Assembly: GCA_964406075.1 (NCBI GenBank) | Contig: CAYOQI010000004.1 | Span: 57,718 to 121,717, forward strand | From: an uncultured Pseudomonadales bacterium | Lineage (GTDB): Bacteria > Patescibacteriota > Microgenomatia > UBA1400 > PJMF01 | Length of the DNA: 64,000 nt | Direction of reading: 5' to 3' | Part shown: one piece after another, positions 2,658 to 62,949 of the stretch | Layout of the letters: every line of letters begins with the position of its first letter | Position numbering within the stretch: the stretch's first letter is position 1 | Notes under the pieces: model-generated | The model's database searches: none | Told to the model about the DNA's origin: nothing | The model's input: only the letters and a program-made list of their open reading frames with translations | Made by a program: the position numbers and the translations under genes

Positions 2658-4615
2658 TGATTCAAGCTTTATTTTCTAGCCTTTTTTTCTATCTCCTACC
2701 ACTAGGAACAGGGTTATTTTGTTTTTCGCTGGTTCAGCTCATTCGAGAAACTCGGAATAAAAACCAGCCACTGTATGCCAGATTTGAACATGTTGTGGAA
2801 GAGAAAATTGATCTAGTACTCCACCCACATACTTTTTCCCTAGCCTCACTGTTTTTTTACATAACTTCAGCCTTCACAACTGGAATTGTTGTACTATTTC
2901 TTCTTGCTGTCGGACTCCAATATGGAGTTGTTCAACTGTTGTCATTGCCAACATTTAGCTTTCCTCAACTCTTTTTCCCTCTAGTGTACCTATTAGCACT
3001 TAGTGGTGTTGTTCTTTCTCTGATTACTCAGAAACACTATTTTAAAAAGCTATCTAAAGCTCGATTAACGCAATTCTTACCTGTATTTCTCATCATTTTC
3101 TTGGCTATAGTCACATCTCTTCTCTGGAATTACCGCAGTCCATACTCTCTGAATTGGGATCTGTATCAACATCAATTGATGTCGAGAGTAATTATCGAGA
3201 AGCAATTTAGCCTGACTACCTCGAGCTTATCTGATACGTTTGGGTTTGATAGCTATCCTCCGACTTTCCATCTCCTGATGGCGAGTGCTCAGTGGCCTTT
3301 TGAACTGGCTCCTACTTTCATTACCAGTTTTTGGCAAATCACGGCCTTTTTTCATCTGGCATTAATAGGAATTGCATCGTATCTCCTTGCTCGATCCTTA
3401 TATCCCAATCGCTGGGTCGGGATACTTTCCATCCTGACCGGAATGTTGATATTCGATTCAGTCGTTTCTTTTACTAATATCTTTCTTCTTCCTCAAACCT
3501 TAGCTGCCTTAATTTTTACTCTAGCATTTGCCCACATCATTGCTTTTAAACCTCATTGGCTTCAGATTGCAATATATTTGGTAGCTATTTTCATGTTGCA
3601 CTATGTGGTGGGAACTCTGGCTGTCACCATCTTATTAGCCACTGCCGTAGCCTTTCGAGTAGATAGCTTTTGGTCACCGGTTACTTCTCACTTCCCTTTG
3701 CTTCCAGTTTTTTTCTTTCTTTGTCTGGTTGCCTTGATCGGAGCGCCACAATTGAATTTAAGCGGTCTTAATCAGGGTGAAGCGGCTTTATATACTTATT
3801 CCTTATCTCAAAAGTGGGAATTTGCTCTCAGAGTTTACGGCTGGTTACTGATCATTTTTCTGCCGTTATCAGCTGTCACTATCTATGAAGCCAAAAGCAA
3901 GAAATTAGCCTGGAGTTCACTTATTTTCCTCGGCTTATTAACGATAATCTCAACCCAACTTCCATACATGTTGAAGTTTTATGTTATTACCCGATTTTTC
4001 CTTCATTTCTTTTTAGCCTTGGGTATTTGGAGTATTGTGAAAACGCTTGATTTAAGAATTTCTAAAGCTATTGCCATTATTTTAGTGATTCTGACCTGTG
4101 TGGGATTGTTTGGATACAATATTTCCTTCTGGAAACATGGATTAAATTACCAGGATCAACTTACTCATCTGGATCAATCTGATCTGGATACCGCAGAATT
4201 TTTACAAAAAGTCTATGCTGATCAGGAAATACTTATGATTTCTGATCCGGCTACTCAATTTATTTTGGAAGGCTTTAGTGGGGTGAATTCGCCTGGAGGT
4301 TCATTTATGACTCCTGTAAATCGCAATCTGTTATTTCAAGCTTTATCTCAAGAAGACTCAACTCAAATAAAAAGTCGTCTCGACCAAATGACTGATAAAT
4401 TAAGTACTCAATATGACAAAAAACTCTTTGTGGTTAGCGGACGGACCTTCCTCTGGAAAACAAGTGACGAAAAGTTCAGAAACTCTTTTGATTACAACAT
4501 CTGGTCTCCTCGAGACTTATCATGGCGTGATAAAGAATTTATTGAAAAATTAGACCAGTCAGCTGACTTTTCCATTGTTTTCTCTTCTCCTGTTTATACA
4601 GTCCTAGAGTTTTAA
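2657..4615 (+). CDS. polytopic membrane protein, possibly a GT-C-type (ArnT/PMT-like) glycosyltransferase
   Basis: 652 aa. Roughly 12-14 hydrophobic helices occupy the first ~480 aa, followed by a ~170-aa soluble C-terminal domain. It sits directly upstream of GT2 and GT4 genes. The family assignment is inferred from architecture and context only. Confidence 0.5.
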   Translation: MIQALFSSLFFYLLPLGTGLFCFSLVQLIRETRNKNQPLYARFEHVVEEKIDLVLHPHTFSLASLFFYITSAFTTGIVVLFLLAVGLQYGVVQLLSLPTFSFPQLFFPLVYLLALSGVVLSLITQKHYFKKLSKARLTQFLPVFLIIFLAIVTSLLWNYRSPYSLNWDLYQHQLMSRVIIEKQFSLTTSSLSDTFGFDSYPPTFHLLMASAQWPFELAPTFITSFWQITAFFHLALIGIASYLLARSLYPNRWVGILSILTGMLIFDSVVSFTNIFLLPQTLAALIFTLAFAHIIAFKPHWLQIAIYLVAIFMLHYVVGTLAVTILLATAVAFRVDSFWSPVTSHFPLLPVFFFLCLVALIGAPQLNLSGLNQGEAALYTYSLSQKWEFALRVYGWLLIIFLPLSAVTIYEAKSKKLAWSSLIFLGLLTIISTQLPYMLKFYVITRFFLHFFLALGIWSIVKTLDLRISKAIAIILVILTCVGLFGYNISFWKHGLNYQDQLTHLDQSDLDTAEFLQKVYADQEILMISDPATQFILEGFSGVNSPGGSFMTPVNRNLLFQALSQEDSTQIKSRLDQMTDKLSTQYDKKLFVVSGRTFLWKTSDEKFRNSFDYNIWSPRDLSWRDKEFIEKLDQSADFSIVFSSPVYTVLEF

Positions 4616-4771
4616 GACTCATCCGTTTAATTATTTCCATTGAACTAGCCCAGTTAACTCATTGCCAAAATCAGTTTTATTGGTTATATTCTCACCCTTG
4701 TCCTTACAATCTTTCTCTGGATCTCTTGCACTATAATTGACATTTTCATTATTATAGGATATAATCTCCGC

Positions 4772-5560
4772 ATGATTTTAAACAAATCTATTACACTCAT
4801 CATTCCCTGTAAGAACGAGCAAGGCTCGATCCCTAAGCTTTTGCGACGTGTTCCTACATACGTTGACGAAGTGATCGTCGTCGATAACAACTCTTCAGAT
4901 AATACTTCTGAGGTTGCTCGAAAACTTGGTGCTATCGTCGTTTCTGAAAAAAGAAAAGATAAATTTGGCATTGGGTATGGATATGCTCACCAAAAAGGTA
5001 TGCGATTTGCTACCAGTGACTATATCGTTACGATGGATGGTGACCGCACTTACCCTCTCAATGAGATCAAGAACTTGGTGAAACACATGGAGAAAAACCA
5101 ACTCGACTTTGTGTCATGTACTCGATTTCCTTTAATGCGATCTCAAGCTATTACTAAAATGAGACAATTTGGTGTTTGGATTTTGAACACTGAAGTAAAA
5201 ATGTTGTATCAATATCCTATGCAAGACATATTGAGTGGTATGTGGGCTATGAATAGAAAAACCGCACGCAAACTCAAACTTATTGAAGGTGGATGGGACT
5301 TATCTCCAGAGATTAAGCTTGAAGCTTTACAAACGAAAGATTTGAAGTTTGCTGAGTATCATATTGACCATGCTCACCGAGATAATGGTGCCAGTAAGCA
5401 ACAACTCTGGACTACGGGTTTTAATCATTTAAAGTATATTGCTGTTCGTAGATTTACTCGAGATAATCCAGCTTTCCATTTTTATAAAAAGCAAGTCAAA
5501 AGCTTTCGAAAAGGCTGGGAAATGGTTCTCGAAACCTTTGCACCAAACTTAGCTGAGTAA
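4772..5560 (+). CDS. family 2 glycosyltransferase (polyprenyl-phosphate sugar synthase / Dpm1-like)
   Basis: The N-terminal GT-A signature is present: LIIPCKNEQGSI ... VIVVDNNSSDNTSEVA ... VTMDGD (DxD). The 262-aa size is typical of Dpm1/GtrB-like enzymes. Confidence 0.85.
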   Translation: MILNKSITLIIPCKNEQGSIPKLLRRVPTYVDEVIVVDNNSSDNTSEVARKLGAIVVSEKRKDKFGIGYGYAHQKGMRFATSDYIVTMDGDRTYPLNEIKNLVKHMEKNQLDFVSCTRFPLMRSQAITKMRQFGVWILNTEVKMLYQYPMQDILSGMWAMNRKTARKLKLIEGGWDLSPEIKLEALQTKDLKFAEYHIDHAHRDNGASKQQLWTTGFNHLKYIAVRRFTRDNPAFHFYKKQVKSFRKGWEMVLETFAPNLAE

Positions 5561-11454: not shown

Positions 11455-12564
11455 TTAATTCGGTAGGGGTTCAACTTCTTGGAAACGATATGATTCTCGC
11501 TTGAGTGTATTTACTTGCTGACCAATACCTTCAAAAATCTCCTGCAGATCATTGGCATTCGTGGTTTCATACACTTTTGCAGGATCCGCAATCATTTCTC
11601 CCAATATTTTACTTCCCAACTCAAGCTGGGCTGAATTTAAAAATGATGTATTTCTATAAAATACTCCGAATAATTCATATCCGGCTTCACGCTGGTTTGT
11701 AGCAATCGTAATCGCATTATCTGAACACTCAGTGCCTGCACCCTCAGGGGCATAATTATCTAGTGACGCATAATCAAGTACTTCTCTGCTACACCCAAAA
11801 ATTGTTCCATTCGAACGAACTCCTCGATTCGCGACACCATCTGTAAAAAAGACAATGATATTTTTACGTGGAATAGGTGGTGGATCAGCTTTATCTAATT
11901 CTTCTGATGCTGATAGCATCCCAGCTCCAATATTGGTCAACTGTGTACCTCGTAAAATCTCAACTTCACCCACCCTATTAATAATCGATATTTTATCTGT
12001 ACTTAATTCATGATCAATTCTACCCTCGTTGGCATAACTAATGATGCTGATTCGATCATCTGGACCAAGTTCAATCTCATTTACCATATTTTGAATTGCA
12101 GTTTTTAAGGTATCAATGGTTGAATGCATACTACCTGAACGGTCAATCACAATTGCAATATCTAAAGGTAAATCTGCTGTGGAAGTTTCTTCGGTCACTT
12201 GGTACTGAGCTGTAAAACGCCGCTTGGCATCCCGAAAATTTGATCCGATATCAATATCGTATGTTTCAGATCCAGCATCATAGGTTAAATTTCTGGTAAC
12301 TCTAGTGTCACCAATCATGATTTCATCGGAATATGGATTTTCAGCCGGCCAACCAGGATACGTTCGTAATATTTGAAATGTGTCATACAAACCACCCTCA
12401 ACAGCATAGTACGCTTTTCTGGAATACTGCCCACTCAACGATCGTTCCGATCCAACTCTTGCTAGAAGCAACATACTAAAAAAAGCCAGTTCTAATAACA
12501 ACGCAATCACTAAAACGAGTAGTAGTGTTGACAAGCCTGATTGGTGTGAGAGTTTTTTTTTCAT
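11455..12564 (-). CDS. von Willebrand factor A (vWA) domain protein with an N-terminal hydrophobic, pilin/TadG-like anchor
   Basis: The MIDAS motif DIAIVIDRSGSM (DxSxS) is present, with downstream T (GTQLTNIG) and D (FFTDGVAN). The N-terminus is QSGLSTLLLVLVIALLLELAFF. Its stop codon abuts the stop of the convergent ATPase gene (TAG 11452-11454 / TTA 11455-11457). Confidence 0.8.
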   Translation of the reverse strand: MKKKLSHQSGLSTLLLVLVIALLLELAFFSMLLLARVGSERSLSGQYSRKAYYAVEGGLYDTFQILRTYPGWPAENPYSDEIMIGDTRVTRNLTYDAGSETYDIDIGSNFRDAKRRFTAQYQVTEETSTADLPLDIAIVIDRSGSMHSTIDTLKTAIQNMVNEIELGPDDRISIISYANEGRIDHELSTDKISIINRVGEVEILRGTQLTNIGAGMLSASEELDKADPPPIPRKNIIVFFTDGVANRGVRSNGTIFGCSREVLDYASLDNYAPEGAGTECSDNAITIATNQREAGYELFGVFYRNTSFLNSAQLELGSKILGEMIADPAKVYETTNANDLQEIFEGIGQQVNTLKRESYRFQEVEPLPN

Positions 12565-12576
12565 TTGATTTTAAAT

Positions 12577-13104
12577 CTATAAAACGATCTGGTTCCTCAT
12601 CGAGACCACGATCACTTTTTCAATTCTTTCCGGATTTCCTATCGCCATTTCCAATCCAATCCGAATTCTTAAGAGCGACAAAGTTCCTTCATCTTGAAGA
12701 TTCTCAATATCAAAATCTGTCACTCGAATGTTCGATGACAGTAATGTCTTCTCATTTTTCAAAAGTACTCCGTCTTCTACTCTATAGATCGTCGTAATGA
12801 GGACACCTGGTGTCTCTTCTTTTACTACTTCTAAGCTGTCTTCAACTCCCATGTCTGTCACAATTGCCGACTCCCCCCATTGAATTTCTTGGGTTAAATC
12901 ATTGGCTAAAGAAATCATCGAGCTTTGAATAACTTCTTGCCGATCTCCGGTTCTCTGAGAACGAAAGATGTCTGTCACAATCGCTAAAATGGAAGTTATC
13001 AGCACCACAATAATTAGGAGGAAAATAATCAACTCAAACAAGGTAAACCCCGCCTCAAGATCATGGTTCTTTTTATTGTTAACTGTTAACTGGTCGACTG
13101 ACAT
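12577..13104 (-). CDS. prepilin-type N-terminal cleavage/methylation domain protein (minor pilin / pseudopilin)
   Basis: The class III signal EAG|FTLFELIIFLLIIVVL is present, with Glu at +5. Confidence 0.8.
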   Translation of the reverse strand: MSVDQLTVNNKKNHDLEAGFTLFELIIFLLIIVVLITSILAIVTDIFRSQRTGDRQEVIQSSMISLANDLTQEIQWGESAIVTDMGVEDSLEVVKEETPGVLITTIYRVEDGVLLKNEKTLLSSNIRVTDFDIENLQDEGTLSLLRIRIGLEMAIGNPERIEKVIVVSMRNQIVL

Positions 13105-13634
13105 TATTCTTCCCCTTTCTTAATCACATACATTTCATACTCAACCTCTTGGGGAATACCATTAATATTCCAGCTCACTCGTGTAATAAGTCTTAAAGTA
13201 TCGGGATCATCGATAGCATCACTGACACTTTCATCCACAACTTGAAACGTAACCGGATCTCGAACAATGTTTTGAACAAATATTTCGCGAGTGAATTTAT
13301 CTTCCAACACCTCTGTTCCATTCAGTAACTGTAAAAATGGTGAATACTCAGGGTGATATGGCTCATCAGCATCAAAACTGGTACTAAACAACTCCCAATC
13401 GGTGGTAGAACTTGCCAAGTTGTACGCAATTTCCATCCCCTCTTGAGCATGTAAACCTGCTTCTACTCTTTCCCAAGAAGTACGTTGGGAAGAAAATACA
13501 TGTTGAAAAGAGATTATGAAAAAAACAATTAAAGAGATAAAAATCCCCATAGAAATGACAGCTTCCAGCAAGAGATATCCTTGCTCAGAGTGACGCTTAG
13601 AGTGGTTGTGGTACGGTTGTGTCAAGAACGCCAT
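13104..13634 (-). CDS. prepilin-type pseudopilin
   Basis: The N-terminus SEQG|YLLLEAVISMGIFISLIVFFII has Gly followed by Glu at +5. It overlaps the neighbouring pilin genes at both ends. Confidence 0.7.
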   Translation of the reverse strand: MAFLTQPYHNHSKRHSEQGYLLLEAVISMGIFISLIVFFIISFQHVFSSQRTSWERVEAGLHAQEGMEIAYNLASSTTDWELFSTSFDADEPYHPEYSPFLQLLNGTEVLEDKFTREIFVQNIVRDPVTFQVVDESVSDAIDDPDTLRLITRVSWNINGIPQEVEYEMYVIKKGEE

Positions 13635-14076
13635 AAGAATTTATACGAATCTGAGTGGTAAAACGGTTTGATTGTAGTTCAAGAGTTAAATCACTTCCCG
13701 GTGGATTTGTTTCTTGCGGGGACAATTCTAGTTGCCCCGTCAATTTCCGAAAAAAAACAAGGTCTGCGGTTGAATTTAATTGAATACCATATTGATAAGA
13801 AATTTGTTTATTTTCAGGCAAAAGCAAGTAGAATCCTGGAGAAACGAATGAGATACCATAACTCTCCCCGTTTTGAGCCACACGTGATTTTTGTTGTGCT
13901 TGCTTGAGCTCAGCCACGATTTTGTCGCGTTCCTTGGTCAATCGTTGGCGCTCTAAAGTTCCAAGTAAATATGGGGTGCTCGCACCAACCACCAACGCAA
14001 TAATTGTCATCACCACAATCAACTCCACTAAAGTGAAACCAGATGAATTCTGATGTTGGGCAGAACGAAAAAACAT
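13597..14076 (-). CDS. prepilin-type pseudopilin
   Basis: The N-terminus is NSSG|FTLVELIVVMTIIALVV, a canonical prepilin cleavage and methylation motif. Confidence 0.8.
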   Translation of the reverse strand: MFFRSAQHQNSSGFTLVELIVVMTIIALVVGASTPYLLGTLERQRLTKERDKIVAELKQAQQKSRVAQNGESYGISFVSPGFYLLLPENKQISYQYGIQLNSTADLVFFRKLTGQLELSPQETNPPGSDLTLELQSNRFTTQIRINSYGVLDTTVPQPL

Positions 14077-14122: not shown

Positions 14123-14189
14123 TGCCCCCACCGGGAACCTGCCTGCCGGCAGGCAGGTCGAAATTTGGATTTAGGGTTTAGGAAATTAG
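14123..14189 (-). other. tRNA-Arg 3'-half-like segment interrupted by a 20-nt palindromic insert
   Basis: The minus strand reads CTAATTTCCTAAACCCTAAATCCAAATTTCGAC[CTGCCTGCCGGCAGGCAGGT]TCCCGGTGGGGGCA. Outside the bracket it aligns with the 3' 44 nt of the adjacent tRNA-Arg (TTTCCTAAACC, TAAATCCA, TTCGAC and TCCCGGT are all shared). Confidence 0.6.
14133..14162 (-). repeat. conserved 30-nt GC-rich palindromic element, copy 1
   Basis: The plus strand reads GGGAACCTGCCTGCCGGCAGGCAGGTCGAA, a 9-bp stem ACCTGCCTG / CAGGCAGGT with a 4-nt loop. It is 29/30 identical to 62367..62396. Confidence 0.85.
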
Positions 14190-14261
14190 TGCCGATACCG
14201 GGAGTCGAACCTGGATTTAAGGTTTAGGAAACCTCCGTTCTATCCATTGAACTATATCGGC
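14190..14261 (-). tRNA. tRNA-Arg (anticodon CCT)
   Basis: Hand-folded cloverleaf: GCCGATA TA GTTC-AATGGAT-A-GAAC G GAGGT TTCCTAA ACCTT ... TTCGACT ... TATCGGC A. The acceptor strands are complementary. There is one A-C mismatch in the T stem and no encoded CCA. Confidence 0.8.
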
Positions 14262-14343
14262 TATGAGTATAAAAAATTGTCATCCATAGGCTGCCTGCCC
14301 GCCTTTGGAGGGATCGCCTTTGGCGGAAACTATGGGAGCAGTG
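14262..14343 (-). other. GC-rich structured spacer between tRNA-Pro and tRNA-Arg that begins with a tRNA-5'-end-like GCTCCCATAG
   Basis: The minus strand reads CACT GCTCCCA TAG TTTCCGCCAAAGGCGATCCCTCCAAAGGCGGGCAGGCAGCCTATGG ATGACAATTTTTTATACTCATA. It contains an outer stem CCATAG/CTATGG, the direct repeat CC(G/T)CCAAAGGCG twice, and a GGCAGGCAG motif shared with the palindromic element. Confidence 0.4.
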
Positions 14344-14415
14344 TCGGGGTGGAGGGAATTGAACCCTCTGCCTCTCGGTCCCGAACCGAGCGCTCTACCG
14401 ATGAGCCACACCCCG
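14344..14415 (-). tRNA. tRNA-Pro (anticodon CGG)
   Basis: Hand-folded: CGGGGTG TG GCTC-ATCGGTA-GAGC G CTCGG TTCGGGA CCGAG AGGCA GAGGG TTCAATT CCCTC CACCCCG A. All stems are perfectly paired. Length is 72 nt with no encoded CCA. Confidence 0.9.
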
Positions 14416-52447: not shown

Positions 52448-55400
52448 ATGTTCTCATTTCGTCGTCGCCCACTATCTTCCGTATCTAGAAAACGCTCACC
52501 GAAGGTAGTTGTTCTCTTATTGTTGTTAACACTGCTTTTACTCCCAATCGTCTACAGCCTCATTACACGTCCCAATCAAGGAACAGCTGCACCACTCAAC
52601 GCGACTGAAGATTCTACTTCCATCACAATTACATCCCCAGGAAAATATCGAGCAGTGATCCAAAAAGGCGATACCACAGATTACATTCTTTTTTATGATC
52701 TAGCTGAAGATGCCGGTAACCCTGATCCGACACATGAGTTTAAGGGCCCGTGTGTTTTGGAAACAAACACGTATTGCCTGCGAGATGATAGTAACCGAAT
52801 GACAACACTGATTGAGGTGACAGACACCGTTGTGAAAGTTCGGGTCATGGGCAGATTCAATAACGAAGCCAGTACTGATTATCTTGATGATGATACGCCA
52901 CTCTATTTCCCTGAAGTGATCGAAAACTATGCGTTCACTCGTGATGGAGTAAGTGTCATGAACCGTACGGACTTCGCTACGGGAACTGGTGTCACTTTTG
53001 ATGCAGATTCTGGGCACAACGGATATGACTGGCTCGGTGTGTACTCAGATGTCACCGATGGTGCATACGATGACACCGCCAATAATAACTATGGTGATGG
53101 TGCGACTGAGGCTCAAATATCCGCCGATGGAGAGTTTTCTAATACCAATAGTTACTTTCACATGCCTGGAACTGGGAGCTCTACCTACCAAGACGCCTTT
53201 GTCGGTATACATCGAGATGGTTGGTATAGCGATTTAAACTCCAGTGGTGTCCATGAGTGGAATTGGGATGAGGCTGAATCAGGTACGCAGGATTTAATCA
53301 CAGCACAAGAGCAAAACTACAACTCCAGCAGACGTCATGAGGCCAAATGGTATTTCCTCCTGAAAAGTGAATCAGATCTTGATACTGAAGCCGAACGAGA
53401 AGCTTTGAACAATGAAATGATCAATGCCGATATACTCTCCTACACCGTAGGTGAAACGTCCTACGAGATGCCGGTGACTGCAACTGCAATCAATTTTGAT
53501 GCGGATACTGATTACGTCAACGTGCCTGACAACTCAGCCTATGATTTTGGTGATACAGCAGACTACTCTGTTGAAGCGTGGATGATGAGAAATGGAAACC
53601 CTATTTCAGGTGATAACCCCATTGTCTCAAAACGGCTCTGTTGTGGTGCTTCCGGCTGGGAATTCCAGATTCGACTTTCAAGCGCACGAATGCGTTTGCA
53701 AATGACTGATGGAACAGATACGTATGATCTTGAAGGCAGTACGGTTCTTAGTGACCAAACTTGGTACCACGTTGCAGCCGTGTTTGATCAAGACAACGCC
53801 AGCAATAGCATTATCTATATAAACGGTGTTGCAGAAACGATGACTCGGACAGGGACTATTGGAAATTTGGGCAGTATGGCAAGTACCGCTGGACTCGGTT
53901 TTGGTGTTGGTGAGCCTGGTATTGGGAACTATAACAGTTTTTCCGGCCGAATAGCTGAAGTACGAATCTGGGATGATGTGCGAACAGCAGCTGAAATTCG
54001 CGAAAACATGTTTCGACAAATTGACCCCGCATCAGCAAACCTAGTGGGATACTGGAAACTGGATGAAGGGACCGGAACTGCAGTACATGATTCCAGTGCA
54101 ACCGGTGCGAATGGAACAATTGTTGGAGGTGCCACTTGGGACTCAGTCAATGAACGTAAGGCCGATCACTTCAATGAATTTGAATTTGCCCACACACTTC
54201 AGTCAACAGCCCAAAATGCGCAGTACGATATTGATGCTGGAGCATCAAATGTCTCAACAACAGCCAATGGTGCTATTTCCGATAACGCGACCACAGTCAC
54301 AGTTACCTCCACGACAGGCTTTGCCTCTTCGGGAATTGCCTACATTGATGGAGATAAGTTTAGCTACACTGGAACCACTGCCACGACATTTACCGGTGTT
54401 CCCTCTTCTGGTGAACACAGCGTAATTGCTCATGTCACAGGAAGTGTGGTCGCTCAGTTCACGCGAAGTAACACCAACTTTAAGGTTGGTGGCTACCAAT
54501 CCACTGAGAAACCTGCGCAAATTACCAAAGAAGGTATCTCGCAAAAAGAAGGGGTCGATTTCTCAGCTTCTGTAAAGCCAGTAACGGATGGCTACTTTGC
54601 CCAAGACTTAAGTTTTTATGCAGACTTTGCAAGTACGACAGTTGACGTTGGTTCAAACTTGACCAATAGCGGATGTACCCTGACACAAGGTGGCAATGAC
54701 TACACTTTAGGATTTATCACCGTATGTGATGGTGGCTCCGATGACATGACATTTACCTCAACAGGCAATATCGACTATGCCAAAGGAGCCCTTGAGTTTT
54801 CGATCGCGGCATTCAGTACCAGTGCTGACAGTACCGAACGTACATACTTTCGCATAACCGATGGCACCGATGAGTTTCGATTTCGCAAAACATCAGGCAA
54901 TACTTTAGAGTTTTTAATTGATGAAGGCGCTTCCACCTATACAGAATCTATCTCAAGTGCAAACTACAGTTGGGGGTTTTTGGACACTGTTCACATTCGA
55001 CTGGAATGGGATGACAGTGCCTCTACCACAGAAGATGAAATGAAAATTTACATCAATGGAAGATTACCGACCTCCACAGATGCGAGTGGTTTTACCGGTG
55101 CAAATGTGTCTCCTGGTACCACCTTCCGTTTAGGAAATAGTGCAGACTCTGGAGGTACGCACTGTAACTGCTTGATCGATGAATTCAAAATCTATGACTT
55201 CAACGGCAGTGGTGATCAAGTTGGACTGGCCAAGGTTGGAGCCGGTGGTGGAGGTGGTGATTATTTCTATAACCCAAATAATAATCTGACGCTTTCTTTT
55301 GCTCCGGTGGACGCTGGTAATCGAGGTGAGTATCTCTACTTAGGCGCTGATGCCAAAGTCAATGGATATAACTTTGATCTTGCTACCAATGGTGTTGGAA

Positions 55401-58400
55401 GTTCCTTAAATCTTGATTGGGAATACTGGAATGGTGTCGCTTGGACAAGCTTAGAATCCATTGTTGGCTTTACAGATACGACAAGTAACTTAACCCAAAG
55501 TGGCACCGTGTATTGGACTGCTCCACCGACCAACTGGAGACCATATGCGATGAACAGCAAAAATGAGTTCTACTATATTCGAGCTTCCTTAAATGCAGCA
55601 TCTGGTACGTACACCACAAGTCCTGTCGAAAATAGAATCACCACAACAACTCTCTACATTCGAAGCGACACGACACTTAATCTTGAAGATCAAACGTTTG
55701 TCATTCCCACCCAATTCCAACCATCTGTTTTCTGGAAAATGGATGAAGGTCAAGGAACAGCAATCAATGATAGTACTGGGAATAAAAACGACGGAACACG
55801 CCTCAATGCGGTGTGGCAAACGGAAGATATGTGTGTTTCAGGAAAGTGTCTCTATTTTGATGGGAGTGGCAGTCCAAGAGACTATCTGTATAGATTAAAT
55901 GATGACAGTTTCAACTTTACAGCCAGCGAAAGTTTCTCAATAAGTATTTGGATAAAACGTGAACCAATATCTACAGACCCGAATGTGATTCTTGCAAAAC
56001 ATAACTCAAGCGGTGGTGGATATAAAATTCGAATGGAAAATGATGGTGATATCAGTTGTGGAATTGATGATGACAGTACGTACACCCCTGATGCTGAGGC
56101 AATTAGTACGCTCGCCACCTATGATGATAATCAATGGCACCACATCGAGTGTGTCAAAGATGGTACTTCAAGTTTGTCGCTCTATATCGATGGAATACTT
56201 ATTAATACCAACTCCTCTATCTCTGGAGTAGGAAGTCTTGTAAACACGCAACCGTTTTACCTTGGAAATGGCGGTGACGGTTTATCAGATGCATTTAAAG
56301 GCTTCATGGATGAATTCAAAATGTATCCCTATGCTCGAACTGCAGATGAAGTAAAAGCCGACGCTATTGCAGGCGCTGGAAATCGTGGCTCCTCCGCTGT
56401 ACTCGGAGCACAGGACACCGCATTTCTAAATGACGGCTTAGCCGGTTATTGGTCACTCGATGAAGGAACCGCTAACTCTTGTAGTGGAGGAACAAACGAT
56501 AGCTGTGATAAATCTGGCAACAATAATGATGGTGCTTGGCAGGATAATGCCACAAGTACGCGTGGTAAGTTTAGTCGTGGCACAATTTATGATGGAACCA
56601 ATGACAATGTCACCATAACTGATCCAACGTCTGGGACATTAGATTTTGGGACAGGTGATTTTACCGTGTCAACCTGGGTGAACTTCAGTGCTATCGCGAA
56701 TGGAAGTACCCTGCTTGGGAAAAACTTCACTGGTTCGGGAGCCGGGTATGGTATGCGTATACAAACCACTTCCCCGACGATATGGGTGGGAGATGGTGCT
56801 ACTACGGCTGAGCTTGCCCACACGGCAGTACTTTCAAACTCTGCCTGGTATCATGTTGTTGGTGTCAGGAAAAACGGCACATTATATATATACGTGAATG
56901 GTGTACAAGGCTCATCCACTGCATCTTTTACTGGGAATGTGAGTACCACAGGAAATCTGTATTTGGGGGCCAGAGGAACGGGAGCAACAGCAAATATGGC
57001 TGGAAGTTTAGATGAGGTGAGAATATATAATCGGGCCCTTGCTCCTGCAGAAATAACTACTTTATATAACTGGGCACCCGGACCGGTAGGATATTGGAAG
57101 CTGGATGAAAATACGGGTATCAGTGCATATGATTCATCAGGTAATGCTAGCACTGGCACTCTCACAAATAGTCCAACCTGGACACCAGGAAAATTTGGTT
57201 CTGGAGTCAATTTAGGAGGAAATAGTTCCAATCATTATGTGAGCATTGCCGATAATGATCTCTACTCTCCTTCACTCTTTGCAGGAGCTACTATCCAGGC
57301 CTGGTTCAATCAAGACACCGCAACTGCAGCCCGAGACTGGATTGTGGCGAAGGGAAACACAAGTAACTTCGAGTGGGGTCTCGCCGTAAGCAATGGTGTT
57401 CTCTATTGTGAGATCTGGGATTCATCTGGTAGTAGTCAAGCCCAAGTCGTTGCAGGCGTGGTATCCACTGGAGCATGGCACTTCGCCTCTTGCACCATGG
57501 ATAATACCAATGGTGTTTATCTCTATCTTGATGGAGTGTTGCAGGGATCTTCCCCAGGACTTACTGGTGGAATGAGTAATACTACCTCTGCTGTACAAAT
57601 TGGTAATCGTGCCGATGGTGGAGACAATAATTTTGACGGAACTATCGATGAAGTAAAAATCTACAACTATGTTCGTACTCCCGGCCAGATGCTTGAAGAC
57701 ATGAATGGTACTCACCCGGTTGGAGGCTCCCCGGTGGGTTCTCAAATACTTAATTGGAAATTTGATGAGGGCAATGGAACCACAGCAAATAACGAAATAA
57801 CTGGTGGAACAAACGGCACCCTTACCAGTATGGCCACTGCCCCATCGACTTCTTCTTCAGGGTGGACTGCCTCAGGAAAATTTAATAAAGCCTTAGTTTT
57901 TGATGGGACAGACGACAAAGTCGTCATTGACACTGCAAGCGACGCAAATGTGGACTTCAATGCAAGTGAACAGTTTTCTTTGTCGGCCTGGGTGTACTCC
58001 ACCACTGTTCCCACTACTGCAACCGACGAGGATTTAATTATAGGAAAATGGGACGAAACAAGTTCTCAACGTGCATACAGAGTGTTCCTCGAAAATGATG
58101 ATACTGATTCAACAGGTCACATCCGAGTTGAAGTCATGGATGAATCCACCGGAGGAAATGAAATTCTCTCAGCAGTTACGAGTAATGACACTATCTCACA
58201 AAACACTTGGTATCACGTCACCATGACATTTAATGGAACGATCACTGGAGCTGCAAATAGTCTGAAGGTATATCTAGATGGCAAGCAACTTGGTACCAAC
58301 GCAGCGAATGCAAGTTTCGTAGGTATTGATGACGTCACCTCTGATTTCACGGTAGGTGATTATGATGCCACAGACAGTGACGGAGATCTTGATGGCTTTA

Positions 58401-59968
58401 CTGGTCGAATAGATACTGTGCAAGTGTATGGTGCAGAGCTTACAGCAGATCAAGTAAAAATTGTCATGAATGCGAACTCCGGTGTCAACTTCTCTACGGG
58501 TAGAGTTGAAACTGATCAGTCTATTGATGGAACACCATCAAACATAGCTGGATATTGGAATCTGAACGAGAACACAGGGACAACAGTGAATGATACATCT
58601 GGTAATGCAAACGCATTAACGATGAGTGGTGTGTCTGCTAGCTCTTGGGTACCTGCCAAATACGGATCAGGCTTGTACTTCGATGGAGCTGATGATTATC
58701 TCTCTATTGCTGATGATGCTGATTTTGATTTTGCTGCAGTTGATAGTTTTACTATTTCTGCCTGGGCAAAAAACTCTGGCTCACTTGCTTCAAGTCAACA
58801 TATTTTCGTCAAAGGTGACACCACTGATGGGGGCTGGAAACTCTACTTAAATACTGCCGGAAATTACTGTGTCCATTTTGCAGACAACATTAATAATGCC
58901 CCGACTGACTCAGCGTGTTCTTCATCAGGAGGATATGACTACAATGACAATCAATGGCATCACATTACTGCAGTGAAAGTAGCTAACTCTGAACTGCATC
59001 TCTATATTGATGGTGTGCTGGTAGCCTCTGATACAGCATTTTCATACTCCGGAACACTTGCAAACACTGGATCCTTATTGGTGGGCATAGGACAAAGTAC
59101 TACTACAGAAGAATTCACAGGTATCTTGGATGAATTAAAAATTTCGAGAACACCACTTACTGCCTCCCAAGTAGCTTTTGAATACAATCGTGGCCGTTCA
59201 CTAGCCTGGTGGAAATTTGATGACTGTACTGGAACTACTGCATACAATGCTGCCCAAAACGGTAACGGCGATGCGATTGGAAGTAATGGCACCATTACCA
59301 TAGGTGCAACCGGTTCCAACACATCCGCAGGTTCTTGTAATGTCGTGAACACCGCCACAGCTTGGTACAACGGGTTGGTCGGTAAATTTAATAACTCCAT
59401 TGATTTCGATGGCACTGATGATTATGTTTCTGTCGCAGATACAGAGATACTTCGACCAGAGGCAGGTAGCTGGTCCGTATCCTTGTGGGCAAACCCTGCA
59501 AATATCAATCAAAATTCTCCACTTATTACCAAGCGCCTAAACAGTGGGAATTTTGAACAATGGTCACTCTATATCTGTGGAAACATTGGATGTAGTACCG
59601 ATGGACAGCAAGTGCGCTTTGCTTTTGTTGAGGCCGATGGAACTACTGATCGCAAAGCACTCAGCACTCTAGACGTTGTTGATGGCAACTGGCATCATTA
59701 CGTGGGCATAGCCAGTAAAGACGATGACTCCATTATTTTATACAGGGACACAATAGAGCTAACTTCAACTTCTACAACAAATGGTTCCTGGCCTACTGTC
59801 AATAATACTGATCCTGTCCGCATCGCAAACGACAATGGAAGTGTTTACTATAATGGTCAAATTGATGATGTGCAGGTTTTTAACTATACTTTGTCTCAGG
59901 AACAAGTTAAAAAATTGTATAATGAAGGCTCTAGTGCTCGGTTTGGACCAGAAAGTGGAACTCCTTAA
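52448..59968 (+). CDS. giant (2506 aa) membrane-anchored protein with about 9 tandem LamG/concanavalin-A-like lectin modules
   Basis: An N-terminal signal anchor (KVVVLLLLLTLLLLPIVYSLI) is followed by a repeated module signature: (G)YWKLDEGTGT..DSSGN.N.GT ... F(D/T)G.DDYV ... F(T/S)(I/V)SAW(V/I) ... W(Y/H)H(V/I) ... L.LY(I/V)DG ... G.(I/L)DE(V/F)(R/K)IY. Seven W-x-(L/F/M)-(D/N)-E-type module starts can be counted, plus two or more degenerate ones. Confidence 0.9.
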   Translation: MFSFRRRPLSSVSRKRSPKVVVLLLLLTLLLLPIVYSLITRPNQGTAAPLNATEDSTSITITSPGKYRAVIQKGDTTDYILFYDLAEDAGNPDPTHEFKGPCVLETNTYCLRDDSNRMTTLIEVTDTVVKVRVMGRFNNEASTDYLDDDTPLYFPEVIENYAFTRDGVSVMNRTDFATGTGVTFDADSGHNGYDWLGVYSDVTDGAYDDTANNNYGDGATEAQISADGEFSNTNSYFHMPGTGSSTYQDAFVGIHRDGWYSDLNSSGVHEWNWDEAESGTQDLITAQEQNYNSSRRHEAKWYFLLKSESDLDTEAEREALNNEMINADILSYTVGETSYEMPVTATAINFDADTDYVNVPDNSAYDFGDTADYSVEAWMMRNGNPISGDNPIVSKRLCCGASGWEFQIRLSSARMRLQMTDGTDTYDLEGSTVLSDQTWYHVAAVFDQDNASNSIIYINGVAETMTRTGTIGNLGSMASTAGLGFGVGEPGIGNYNSFSGRIAEVRIWDDVRTAAEIRENMFRQIDPASANLVGYWKLDEGTGTAVHDSSATGANGTIVGGATWDSVNERKADHFNEFEFAHTLQSTAQNAQYDIDAGASNVSTTANGAISDNATTVTVTSTTGFASSGIAYIDGDKFSYTGTTATTFTGVPSSGEHSVIAHVTGSVVAQFTRSNTNFKVGGYQSTEKPAQITKEGISQKEGVDFSASVKPVTDGYFAQDLSFYADFASTTVDVGSNLTNSGCTLTQGGNDYTLGFITVCDGGSDDMTFTSTGNIDYAKGALEFSIAAFSTSADSTERTYFRITDGTDEFRFRKTSGNTLEFLIDEGASTYTESISSANYSWGFLDTVHIRLEWDDSASTTEDEMKIYINGRLPTSTDASGFTGANVSPGTTFRLGNSADSGGTHCNCLIDEFKIYDFNGSGDQVGLAKVGAGGGGGDYFYNPNNNLTLSFAPVDAGNRGEYLYLGADAKVNGYNFDLATNGVGSSLNLDWEYWNGVAWTSLESIVGFTDTTSNLTQSGTVYWTAPPTNWRPYAMNSKNEFYYIRASLNAASGTYTTSPVENRITTTTLYIRSDTTLNLEDQTFVIPTQFQPSVFWKMDEGQGTAINDSTGNKNDGTRLNAVWQTEDMCVSGKCLYFDGSGSPRDYLYRLNDDSFNFTASESFSISIWIKREPISTDPNVILAKHNSSGGGYKIRMENDGDISCGIDDDSTYTPDAEAISTLATYDDNQWHHIECVKDGTSSLSLYIDGILINTNSSISGVGSLVNTQPFYLGNGGDGLSDAFKGFMDEFKMYPYARTADEVKADAIAGAGNRGSSAVLGAQDTAFLNDGLAGYWSLDEGTANSCSGGTNDSCDKSGNNNDGAWQDNATSTRGKFSRGTIYDGTNDNVTITDPTSGTLDFGTGDFTVSTWVNFSAIANGSTLLGKNFTGSGAGYGMRIQTTSPTIWVGDGATTAELAHTAVLSNSAWYHVVGVRKNGTLYIYVNGVQGSSTASFTGNVSTTGNLYLGARGTGATANMAGSLDEVRIYNRALAPAEITTLYNWAPGPVGYWKLDENTGISAYDSSGNASTGTLTNSPTWTPGKFGSGVNLGGNSSNHYVSIADNDLYSPSLFAGATIQAWFNQDTATAARDWIVAKGNTSNFEWGLAVSNGVLYCEIWDSSGSSQAQVVAGVVSTGAWHFASCTMDNTNGVYLYLDGVLQGSSPGLTGGMSNTTSAVQIGNRADGGDNNFDGTIDEVKIYNYVRTPGQMLEDMNGTHPVGGSPVGSQILNWKFDEGNGTTANNEITGGTNGTLTSMATAPSTSSSGWTASGKFNKALVFDGTDDKVVIDTASDANVDFNASEQFSLSAWVYSTTVPTTATDEDLIIGKWDETSSQRAYRVFLENDDTDSTGHIRVEVMDESTGGNEILSAVTSNDTISQNTWYHVTMTFNGTITGAANSLKVYLDGKQLGTNAANASFVGIDDVTSDFTVGDYDATDSDGDLDGFTGRIDTVQVYGAELTADQVKIVMNANSGVNFSTGRVETDQSIDGTPSNIAGYWNLNENTGTTVNDTSGNANALTMSGVSASSWVPAKYGSGLYFDGADDYLSIADDADFDFAAVDSFTISAWAKNSGSLASSQHIFVKGDTTDGGWKLYLNTAGNYCVHFADNINNAPTDSACSSSGGYDYNDNQWHHITAVKVANSELHLYIDGVLVASDTAFSYSGTLANTGSLLVGIGQSTTTEEFTGILDELKISRTPLTASQVAFEYNRGRSLAWWKFDDCTGTTAYNAAQNGNGDAIGSNGTITIGATGSNTSAGSCNVVNTATAWYNGLVGKFNNSIDFDGTDDYVSVADTEILRPEAGSWSVSLWANPANINQNSPLITKRLNSGNFEQWSLYICGNIGCSTDGQQVRFAFVEADGTTDRKALSTLDVVDGNWHHYVGIASKDDDSIILYRDTIELTSTSTTNGSWPTVNNTDPVRIANDNGSVYYNGQIDDVQVFNYTLSQEQVKKLYNEGSSARFGPESGTP

Positions 59969-62322: not shown

Positions 62323-62352
62323 AAAAAAGCTGACTAAAAGTCAGCTTTTTTT
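62323..62352. terminator. bidirectional rho-independent terminator
   Basis: The stem AGCTGAC (62328-62334) / GTCAGCT (62340-62346) has loop TAAAA and is flanked by A6 upstream and T7 downstream. It can therefore terminate both the plus-strand Wzy_C-TPR gene and the minus-strand tRNA transcription unit. Confidence 0.8.
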
Positions 62353-62353
62353 A

Positions 62354-62405
62354 TGGTGGACCGTGGGGGAACCTGCCTGCCGTCAGGCAGGTCGAACTCT
62401 CACTG
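62354..62405 (-). other. tRNA 3'-half-like segment (T-arm region with palindromic insert + acceptor strand + encoded CCA)
   Basis: The minus strand reads CAGTGAGAG TTCGAC[CTGCCTGACGGCAGGCAGGT]TCCCCC ACGGTCC A CCA. It lies directly 3' of tRNA-Ala(CGC) and directly 5' of the terminator. Confidence 0.55.
62367..62396 (-). repeat. conserved 30-nt GC-rich palindromic element, copy 2
   Basis: The plus strand reads GGGAACCTGCCTGCCGTCAGGCAGGTCGAA, which is 29/30 identical to 14133..14162. The single difference is in the loop. Confidence 0.85.
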
Positions 62406-62476
62406 TGGACTCACGGGGAATTGAACCCCGAACTATGCAATGCGAATGCATCGGTATACCGTTTACCTATGAGCCC
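62406..62476 (-). tRNA. tRNA-Ala (anticodon CGC)
   Basis: Hand-folded: GGGCTCA TA GGTA-AACGGTA-TACC G ATGCA TTCGCAT TGCAT AGTT CGGGG TTCAATT CCCCG TGAGTCC A. The G3:U70 identity pair is present. Length is 71 nt with no encoded CCA. Confidence 0.85.
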
Positions 62477-62518: not shown

Positions 62519-62755
62519 TTAAATCAGTCGCTTATTTCTAAAAGCAAATCCTGCTCCCGTTTTTAAATACTTTTCAAATTCTATTGCGAGTTTTTCTGAA
62601 GCAAAAGCGGAGTAGAAAATTAGTTTACATGGGAGAAAGTTTTTTGTTGCCTTAACTCTTCCCGAGCTATGCTCTTTCAAACGAGTTTTCAAATCAGAAG
62701 AATAACCAGTATATATTGTGTTATTTATTAGCTGAAGAAGATATGTGTAATACAC
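62519..62755 (-). CDS. stand-alone GIY-YIG (URI domain, UPF0213/YhbQ-like) nuclease family protein
   Basis: 78 aa. YYTYLLQLINNTIYTGYSSDLKTRLKEHSSG matches the GIY-(10-11)-YIG pattern with the downstream R..H and E residues. Confidence 0.75.
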   Translation of the reverse strand: MYYTYLLQLINNTIYTGYSSDLKTRLKEHSSGRVKATKNFLPCKLIFYSAFASEKLAIEFEKYLKTGAGFAFRNKRLI

Positions 62756-62878
62756 TTGAACCTTAAAGTCCTACTTCGCTAAAGCTACGCGGGACACACT
62801 TCGCATGACTTAAAATATCTCTTACTATAAAAAGTGGCCTGCCACACGAAGCTCTGAGTGATAACGAAGAGCGAAGTG

Positions 62879-62949
62879 TGGACCCGAGGGGAATCGAACC
62901 CCTTTCTATTCCATGCCATGGAAGTATACTACCGGTGTACTACGGGCCC
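62879..62949 (-). tRNA. tRNA-Ala (anticodon GGC)
   Basis: Hand-folded: GGGCCCG TA GTAC-ACCGGTA-GTAT A CTTCC ATGGCAT GGAAT AGAA AGGGG TTCGATT CCCCT CGGGTCC A. G3:U70 is present. There is one C-U mismatch at the top of the anticodon stem and no encoded CCA. Confidence 0.75.

Follow-up and report, generated by a model that had tools for sequence, protein, structure and literature searches.

A 20-nucleotide palindrome in displaced tRNA remnants, a probable mini-element of mobile DNA with copies in many bacterial phyla

Single-domain GIY-YIG proteins of the Ssn type (~94 amino acids, CDD cd10448) are site-specific nucleases of single-stranded DNA (Chenal et al. 2025, PMC11893778). Cleavage takes place beside the hairpin repeat that they bind, which is called NTS or dRS3 in Neisseria and 'Ssn-related motifs' (SRM) elsewhere; the Ssn genes are typically flanked by their own repeats, and in Neisseria the pair limits the recombination of incoming DNA (PMC11893778). 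Another described class, the REP elements, consists of short GC-rich palindromes tagged with GTAG or CGTC, which are mostly intergenic and sometimes lie within open reading frames (ORFs) (PMC3733652). The present analysis concerns a stretch of 64,000 nucleotides (nt), hereafter the window, from contig CAYOQI010000004.1 of an uncultured bacterium with a Patescibacteriota lineage in GTDB. It carries two copies of a 20-nt perfect palindrome, CCTGCCTGCCGGCAGGCAGG (hereafter hp), each lodged in a fragment of a transfer RNA (tRNA) gene. GC-rich palindromic inserts that are tolerated within the coding genes of AT-rich genomes include the palindromic elements of Rickettsia, and the GC clusters and 'byp' elements of yeast mitochondria. 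All of these are longer (~30–150 nt) and, unlike hp, confined to one lineage. Ribosomes skip the byp elements, but seem to translate hp into 7–8 residues. The repeats closest to hp are those of REP/RAYT and Ssn/NTS, and it fails both definitions.

From the comparisons described below, hp is very probably a mobile mini-palindrome inserted in displaced tRNA remnants, and the balance of the evidence favours an ultra-short, non-autonomous palindromic insertion element distributed over many bacterial phyla and some phage contigs. A mechanism linked to GIY-YIG nucleases or to DNA breaks is suggested more tentatively.

Two tRNA sites carrying the palindrome

The features that define the two sites are the following (loci taken from other genomes or contigs are given L-numbers):
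14138–14157, no strand: hp copy 1 in the consensus form CCTGCCTGCCGGCAGGCAGG, 0 mismatches.
62372–62391, no strand: hp copy 2 with the loop variant CCGT (ACGG on the opposite strand), 1 mismatch.
14123–14185, minus strand: remnant of the resident tRNA-Arg(CCT) that spans the anticodon loop through the discriminator base, split by copy 1 between A58 and U59, T stem broken (alignment to L129).
14189–14261, minus strand: complete tRNA-Arg(CCT), the replacement (ARAGORN and Rfam, 66 bits).
62354–62397, minus strand: remnant of the resident tRNA-Ala(CGC) that spans the T-loop through the encoded CCA, split by copy 2 between A58 and U59 (comparison with L285).
62405–62476, minus strand: complete tRNA-Ala(CGC) with G3:U70, the replacement, unlike the relative's gene in sequence (ARAGORN, Rfam; comparison with L285).

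An earlier note on this DNA had described a 30-nt element at 14133–14162 and 62367–62396 with 29/30 identity. The identity is borne out, the single difference (G against T) falling within the central four bases, and the T-loop position was rightly recognised at both sites; the outer 5+5 bases, on the other hand, are ordinary T-loop and T-stem sequence, so that the repeated unit is the 20-mer. On the minus (transcribed) strand both copies read TTCGA[core]TTCCC, which corresponds to the T-loop TTCGATT opened after A58, and both lie inside tRNA-like 3' pieces a few dozen bases downstream of complete minus-strand tRNAs. The core folds as a very stable 10-bp hairpin, and its GC content is 80% (70% for the 30-mer, where ~67% had been given). 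A search of the window at up to three mismatches found the core only at 14138–14157 and 62372–62391, and 0/100 shuffled sequences gave a match at the same threshold. ARAGORN and Rfam together place four tRNAs in the window, all on the minus strand; Rfam at both gathering and permissive thresholds returned these four and nothing else, and contains no hp family. Full-text searches found no paper with the hp sequence or its peptide translations, and keyword searches found no description of it.

Evidence of insertion comes from the comparison of filled and empty sites in related genomes: at both window sites exactly 20 nt are added between A58 and U59, without any duplication, and hp is absent from all eight related-genome loci examined, even at four mismatches. 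At the first site the relative L129, whose NDK is 95% identical, carries an intact tRNA-Arg(CCT) without hp. The window remnant reads TTTCCTAAACCCTAAATCCAAATTTCGA[hp]TTCCCGGTGGGGGCA on the minus strand; TTCCCGGTGGGGGCACACTTT recurs unchanged at the 3' end and in the flank of the intact L129 gene, and the relative's 3' end and flank (TTCGATTCCCGGTGGGGGCACACTTT) match the window pseudo-half exactly apart from the 20 inserted bases. The complete tRNA-Arg, located 3 nt upstream of the remnant, has the internally compensated acceptor stem GCCGATA/TATCGGC, whereas the relative and the remnant share GCTCCCA/TGGGGGC. The match with L129 and the different acceptor stem of the functional tRNA thus identify the pseudo-half as the leftover of the resident gene. 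The interval upstream has also been restructured, since tRNA-Pro and tRNA-Arg are separated by three genes in L129 and by 81 nt in the window.

The remaining features of both loci, which are needed for the second site and its surroundings, are:
62519–62755, minus strand: ORF for a 78-amino-acid single-domain GIY-YIG nuclease between the two tRNA-Ala genes (Pfam PF01541, E = 2.5e-14).
62878–62949, minus strand: tRNA-Ala(GGC), which the relative has in identical form and which anchors the replaced segment on the left (ARAGORN, Rfam; comparison with L285).
62324–62352, no strand: hairpin resembling an intrinsic terminator, flanked by T runs and situated between the TPR gene and the tRNA remnant (fold).
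14291–14299, no strand: half copy of hp (CTGCCTGCC), one arm only, in the GC-rich Pro-Arg spacer (sequence match).
14343–14415, minus strand: tRNA-Pro(CGG), located upstream and oriented alike (ARAGORN, Rfam).

At the second site the comparison is with L285, a relative without hp whose neighbouring TPR protein is 66% identical and in which the order is TPR gene, terminator, tRNA-Ala(CGC), a 108-nt spacer, tRNA-Ala(GGC) and Obg. The order in the window is alike, and the terminator stands at the same place as the hairpin at 62324–62352 but has another stem. On the plus strand the Ala remnant reads TGGTGGACCGTGGGGGAA[hp]TCGAAC before the sequences diverge, and L285 reads TGGTGGACTGTGGGGGAATCGAACCCCCG, the 3' end of its intact tRNA-Ala(CGC); the remnant therefore comprises the insert and the last 24 nt of the resident gene, of which six precede the insert on the 5' side. 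The identical tRNA-Ala(GGC) on one side, followed by the GIY-YIG ORF and a different tRNA-Ala(CGC) up to the remnant, indicates that the resident Ala gene was replaced as well. Since L285 has only the 108-nt spacer at the position of the GIY-YIG ORF, this ORF and the neighbouring tRNA-Ala(CGC) appear to have been acquired recently as a cassette; the nuclease gene, whose best solved relative is UPF0213 BH0048, lies 128 nt from hp copy 2. The intact tRNA-Arg(CCT) and tRNA-Ala(CGC) at the same places in the relatives also confirm that the two 3' segments had been correctly recognised as Arg-related and Ala-related. As judged from these alignments, each resident gene (Arg-CCT and Ala-CGC) is replaced by a complete new tRNA immediately upstream; hp may have been inserted first and the replacement followed, or the order may have been the reverse.

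A related motif reported in the Pro-Arg spacer is indeed present as the 9-mer GGCAGGCAG at 14291–14299, which resembles a half copy and is possibly a decayed hp copy, to judge from its sequence; a second one, reported near 62837–62846, shares only ~6–7 bases with hp and is missing from the list of matches with at most one mismatch. The spacer itself (14262–14342) is GC-rich and contains, in addition to the half palindrome, the motif GCCCGCCTTTGGAGGG, a near-identical version of which adjoins hp in a Liptonbacteria contig (L041). Directly downstream of the tRNA-Arg remnant, a run of ORFs on the minus strand (11455–14076) has type IV pilin-like N-termini (e.g. GFTLVELIVV). Its pilin-type ORFs and the names given to its closest NDK homologues mark the genome as Microgenomates-like Patescibacteria. 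Farther along the window, the GC content rises from ~0.35–0.41 to 0.43–0.46 between 38 and 60 kb, a region that includes a 2506-amino-acid ORF (52448–59968). In the relative L132, dense CGTCATCC...GGGATC hairpins of the published Ssn-related type occur downstream of NDK (4469–4900); one hairpin elsewhere in that locus matches the SRM pattern, and a second hairpin family thus coexists in the lineage. Small genes encoding four-helix bundles of the '23S rRNA intervening sequence protein' type were found 0.8–1.2 kb from hp in four loci (L273 and three others), and one such gene lies near the tRNA-Ala locus of L285 (6803–7165).

Spread, junctions and genomic settings

A scan of one genome per prokaryotic species with the pattern ACCTGCCTG-NNNN-CAGGCAGGT, in which the 4-nt loop was left free, gave at least 120 matches, against roughly ten expected by chance according to our estimate, and the free loop was CCGG in 110 of the 126 copies among the genome-scan matches listed. 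At least 120 further matches to the core alone were obtained from metagenome contigs, and 35 matching loci from IMG/VR viral contigs, while cultured-phage genomes and PLSDB plasmids contained 0 exact copies and chance partial matches only. The counts over ~270–305 loci or copies given here rest on the matches listed, and cover 275 loci and 283, 296 or 305 sites depending on the test. The hosts among the matches listed, as named in their records, are ~60 Bacteroidota, 26 Patescibacteria, 11 Planctomycetota and 7 'uncultured Gammaproteobacteria', followed by Ignavibacteria, Nitrospirota, Chloroflexota and others; cultured Bacteroidota carriers belong to Maribacter, Winogradskyella, Flagellimonas, Aquiflexum, Aestuariivivens and Terrimonas, among them Maribacter sp. 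R86514, M. halichondriae Hal144, Winogradskyella echinorum KCTC 22026 and Terrimonas pollutisoli H1YJ31. Many of the hits come from the Hainich groundwater series. The bases beside the core show no conservation in 123 unbiased metagenome copies or in 33 viral copies, and an all-against-all comparison of 150-nt flanks matched only orthologous pairs, with no longer conserved element around hp. The repeat is therefore the 20-mer alone.

Diagnostic variants, among them C[A/T]TGCCTACCGGCAGGCAGG and the ACGG/CCGT loop of window copy 2, recur in separate genomes, and many copies are decayed. In one Chitinophagaceae metagenome-assembled genome, two paralogous regions (L042 and L081) differ by a clean 20-nt insertion or deletion of a variant hp copy. 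The recurring variants together with this paralogue pair indicate that copies descend from templates, which is how mobile DNA behaves. Additional empty and filled sites that differ by exactly 20 nt without duplication were found at L076 (two fragments compared with an intact tRNA-Leu), L183, L278, L177 and L227, so that all comparisons of tRNA fragments and paralogues (at least eight sites) are clean, and the proposal of a small mobile palindromic unit is upheld by them and by the variants. Compensatory change was not seen, none of the 27 two-mismatch copies being mirrored (0/27), and palindromy is not upheld in that way. A flanking repeat is absent at 205/283 sites, and no consistent target-site duplication was detected at 4–7 nt or at 2 nt. 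Short tandem repeats host 13% of the sites as compared with 2.4% of the controls, and tandem hp-hp pairs lie 8–13 nt apart. One locus (L280) ends in an exact 21-nt tandem array of an hp variant (3911–4142) that reaches the contig end; the palindrome has probably given rise here to an artefact of the de Bruijn graph.

When the core was removed in silico, ~22/296 sites (~7%) matched a tRNA across the healed junction, compared with 3.3% of control sites (Fisher p = 0.004), and the match was usually to the adjacent tRNA at 100% identity. Only 2/305 sites heal to a full-length tRNA, which shows that these matches are partial copies beside an intact one. The insertion points within tRNA-like sequence are mostly in the D-arm (~8–24), and also in the T-loop (53–60) and the variable region. 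The layout of the window is reproduced exactly in an uncultured gammaproteobacterium (L044), where an intact tRNA-Leu is followed after 45 nt by GGGTTCGA[core]TTCCCTCTTTCGGCACCA. In all tRNA cases hp lies 0–27 nt from the end of the tRNA homology, on the side that faces the intact copy or the nuclease gene. In a tRNA-Met on a viral contig (L272, 2239–2330), hp forms a long variable arm, and ARAGORN nevertheless predicts a 92-nt tRNA there. The tabulation of copies relative to tRNAs that the earlier note had proposed thus gave, in other genomes, an excess in tRNA fragments, with more than 90% of the copies located elsewhere.

The note had also pointed to the neighbouring GIY-YIG gene, and its attention to this gene was well placed: clustering of the ORFs within 3.5 kb of the copies returned small single-domain GIY-YIG proteins as the top co-occurring family. 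A profile hidden Markov model detected GIY-YIG in 15/275 loci; hp lies within 100 nt of 41% of the domain hits, compared with 8.6% expected from random positions in the same loci (p = 3e-4), and in 9 of the 15 loci it is no more than 250 nt from the gene, the loci having been selected for containing hp. Of the transposase or nuclease genes whose co-occurrence the note had proposed to test, only the nuclease recurs, since no transposase-like family was found repeatedly within 3.5 kb of hp over ~270 loci, a search that a RAYT gene elsewhere in the genome would escape. Six loci share a cassette made of the 5' part of a tRNA up to the anticodon loop, with one or two hp copies in its D-arm, then a GIY-YIG ORF and an intact copy of the same tRNA: L040 (Leu-TAG), L177 (Asn), L227 (Arg-TCG), L183 (Ser-GGA), L206 and L278. 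In the last of these (820–1150) there is an uninterrupted second tRNA copy with structured-looking sequence and an HNH-like ORF after the anticodon-stem region, which may be an intron-containing phage tRNA.

Protein genes are another setting, although ORFs of at least 150 codons hold 34% of the copies compared with 82% of random positions, which amounts to a depletion. Genic copies are translated as (D/N/Y/H)LPAGRQV, KPACRQAG or TCLPAGRS and add 7–8 residues, at surface-loop positions where the solved homologues are shorter; recognisable carriers are PolI, chorismate synthase (AroC), GatB, RmlD and Mpl. Reading through in frame is the favoured relation (50 sites, compared with 28 for each of the two alternatives), and the frame shift required by a 20-nt excision (splicing) of coding copies shows no excess. 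A Collierbacteria membrane protein (L035, 3369–6761, minus strand) contains three in-frame hp-derived inserts (TCLPAGRS, TCLSAGRR and RPACRQAG), two of them decayed. In AroC (L049, L283, L282 and L284) hp occupies the same codon with identical junctions in two separate lineages, with a net gain of 12 nt (DENGK to DLPAGRQVK) and an apparent loss of 8 nt of target.

Comparison with described systems and rival explanations

The Ssn protein and its hairpin repeat are the closest functional counterpart of hp and the GIY-YIG gene. Both systems have short hairpin repeats that are scattered in genomes and recur beside, or to either side of, a gene for a single-domain GIY-YIG protein of ~80–95 amino acids, and in both the repeats are linked to recombination boundaries. 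They differ in that hp has no oriented HGTCWY head and, being a perfect palindrome, is identical on both strands, unlike the oriented Ssn/NTS repeats; hp is one sequence across phyla, whereas Ssn repeats form co-evolving local dialects; and one third of the hp copies lie within ORFs compared with 2% for NTS. The resemblance to REP/RAYT lies in a GC-rich palindrome of 20–40 nt that is occasionally in frame in genes and is thought to move as a hairpin of single-stranded DNA without target duplication. On the other hand, hp is a perfect palindrome and not lineage-specific, while REPs are imperfect and lineage-specific, and it has neither a GTAG nor a CGTC tag, with no RAYT found within 3.5 kb over ~270 loci. 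The suggestion of a REP-like unit was therefore apt as to the short GC-rich palindrome and the clean insertion, and does not extend to the tag, the nearby RAYT or the lineage specificity. That of a MITE-like unit fails, since the whole unit is 20 bp without terminal inverted repeats around an internal region of 70–300 bp, and no fixed or regular target-site duplication accompanies it. A palindrome-associated element derived from IS200/IS605 was likewise set aside, because the conserved 4–5-nt target 5' of the insertion is not seen and neither side is conserved.

The tRNA sites also recall integration scars in tRNA genes (att sites left by integrative elements) and the free-standing GIY-YIG homing endonucleases of tRNA clusters, such as SegB of phage T4, with an intact tRNA beside a displaced partial copy whose boundary falls in the anticodon loop or the T-loop, and a GIY-YIG gene within a tRNA cluster. 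The partial tRNA copies are separated from the intact tRNA by 3–45 nt or by a single GIY-YIG ORF. No integrase ORF was seen in the ORF lists adjacent to the window sites. In contrast to integration scars, no integrase or integrated element was seen between the copies, and the displaced copy contains a palindrome that has no counterpart there.

Taken together, these data are compatible with a mechanism in which hp would be extruded as a hairpin on single-stranded DNA and recognised by a trans-acting, hairpin-directed nuclease, the best candidates being the Ssn-like single-domain GIY-YIG proteins that recur beside it. New copies would be seeded by cuts beside the hairpin or by capture of the 20-bp unit at breaks, and sites bearing hp would be turned into preferred points of breakage and recombination, which would explain why hp is found 0–27 nt from the junction between the old tRNA and the incoming cassette. 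A more elaborate version, which we regard as doubtful, would make hp the cognate single-stranded hairpin of an Ssn-like GIY-YIG clade, in a minimal selfish system that breaks resident tRNAs in their D- or T-loops, installs the nuclease together with a replacement tRNA and leaves the palindrome as a seal on the disabled copy, hp also invading intergenic DNA by itself, and essential proteins as in-frame inserts, in various bacterial phyla.

Several observations weigh against a mobile element driven by such a nuclease. The published SRM pattern, HGTCWYN(0-2)YYVSBRHN(0-5)WNVSBRGN(0-2)RNCYNB, overlaps 0/305 hp copies and has 0 matches in the window, and a GIY-YIG gene adjoins only ~3% of the copies. 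The junctions are heterogeneous, with a 0-nt duplication in the tRNA cases and elsewhere repeats, extensions or the net +12 nt of AroC; flanking direct repeats of 5–8 nt occur at 9/283 sites, and at 9/283 the palindrome is extended by 5–8 nt into the flanks. Variation of this kind is more in keeping with the repair of breaks than with a classical transposase, which makes a fixed stagger. In AroC, the eight codons of hp are identical at 24/24 nt between the two lineages, although their fourfold-degenerate sites are saturated, at 36% identity, and both hp-bearing lineages are nested among nearest relatives that have no hp. This identity in spite of saturated divergence implies a constraint at the sequence level, a repeated identical insertion or a transfer of very short tracts, and it is not predicted for a purely selfish, neutral insert.

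An alternative that dispenses with any dedicated mobility is that hp is a passive filler, i.e. a blunt self-annealed duplex or hairpin oligonucleotide ligated into double-strand breaks, tRNA fragments near homing-type nucleases being the places that are cut often. It would accommodate the clean blunt insertions without duplication as well as the varied junctions, including the 8-nt target loss in AroC, the 5–8-nt repeats or P-nucleotide-like extensions (~3% of sites each) and the tandem hp pairs, and also the proximity of hp to nuclease genes and to the places where replaced segments join. It leaves the conservation of hp in AroC unexplained; moreover, we know of no source of free 20-mers, and many of the hosts (Patescibacteria) are not known to possess end-joining repair. 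We consider this explanation unlikely.

A REP-like element moved on single-stranded hairpins by an IS200/IS605-type HUH (RAYT) transposase appears less likely still. The short GC-rich palindrome, the lack of duplication, the frequent intergenic position with occasional copies in ORFs and the existence of subfamilies would all be expected of it. Against this, hp lacks the GTAG/CGTC head and a 5' target tetranucleotide, no transposase recurs within 3.5 kb, and the sequence is identical across phyla, whereas REP families are lineage-specific.

It had further been proposed that the palindrome has T-loop target specificity, and a machinery recognising the loops of tRNA genes would account for the three independent T-loop insertions at A58/U59 (two in the window and one in L044), for the additional cases in the D-arm and the variable loop and for a frequency of ~7% in tRNA-like sequence, when tRNA makes up ~0.1–0.5% of a typical genome by our estimate. 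A true specificity of this kind is nevertheless improbable. Most of the ~300 copies are unrelated to tRNAs, only 7/126 having a tRNA predicted within 300 nt, and more than 90% are in unrelated intergenic or coding DNA with unconserved flanks; those in tRNA-like sequence (~7%) are mostly in the D-arm and nearly always in fragments, and pre-existing hairpin loops are not enriched at the healed insertion sites (20% compared with 21% of controls).

The proposal of a functional cis element of tRNA operons, whether a hairpin for 3' processing, stabilisation or termination or a binding site for a conserved protein, is very unlikely to hold. The window copies do follow tRNAs on the transcribed strand and form a very stable hairpin, and AroC hints at a sequence constraint. 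However, relatives have the same tRNAs without hp, which is hence not needed for their expression; the window copies sit in dead remnants with broken T stems, neither within the sequence of the functional genes nor immediately behind it; hp has no T run of its own and no Rfam family, one third of the copies are within ORFs, and decayed copies are common.

An insert acting at the RNA level, namely a mini-intron or additional arm that the tRNA loses or tolerates, can scarcely be credited. Position 58/59, a known non-canonical intron site in archaeal tRNAs, and the phage tRNA-Met that is still called with hp as its variable arm speak for it, but the hosts are bacterial, the window remnants have no 5' halves and their T stems are broken, and coding copies keep the frame on read-through, with no excess for 20-nt removal. 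A bulge-helix-bulge tRNA intron was rejected on similar grounds, only 2/305 healed sites giving a full tRNA and the T stems of the window remnants being unpaired. Finally, a sequencing or assembly artefact (adapter or chimera) has a negligible probability: the 21-nt array of L280 resembles a graph artefact, but the same in-frame AroC site is present in three independent data sets with diverged flanks, and hp occurs in complete genomes of cultured strains and in identical hp-bearing sequences from independent samples.

Significance of the palindrome

The recognition of hp has consequences for the reading of bacterial genomes. It explains spurious peptide motifs (PACRQAG, LPAGRQV and TCLPAGRS) and tRNA pseudogene fragments in metagenome-assembled genomes, and it offers a searchable marker of the rewriting of tRNA loci, in which resident genes are replaced, often together with a tiny GIY-YIG nuclease gene. 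It also adds 7–8 residues to conserved enzymes. With its GIY-YIG neighbour, hp is a candidate for a new hairpin-nuclease pair in the Ssn family of single-stranded DNA nucleases, which is of biotechnological interest. If the mobile mini-palindrome is confirmed, hp would be among the smallest units of DNA that behave as a mobile element, and an unusual one in that the same sequence is shared by Bacteroidota, Patescibacteria, Planctomycetota and phage contigs.

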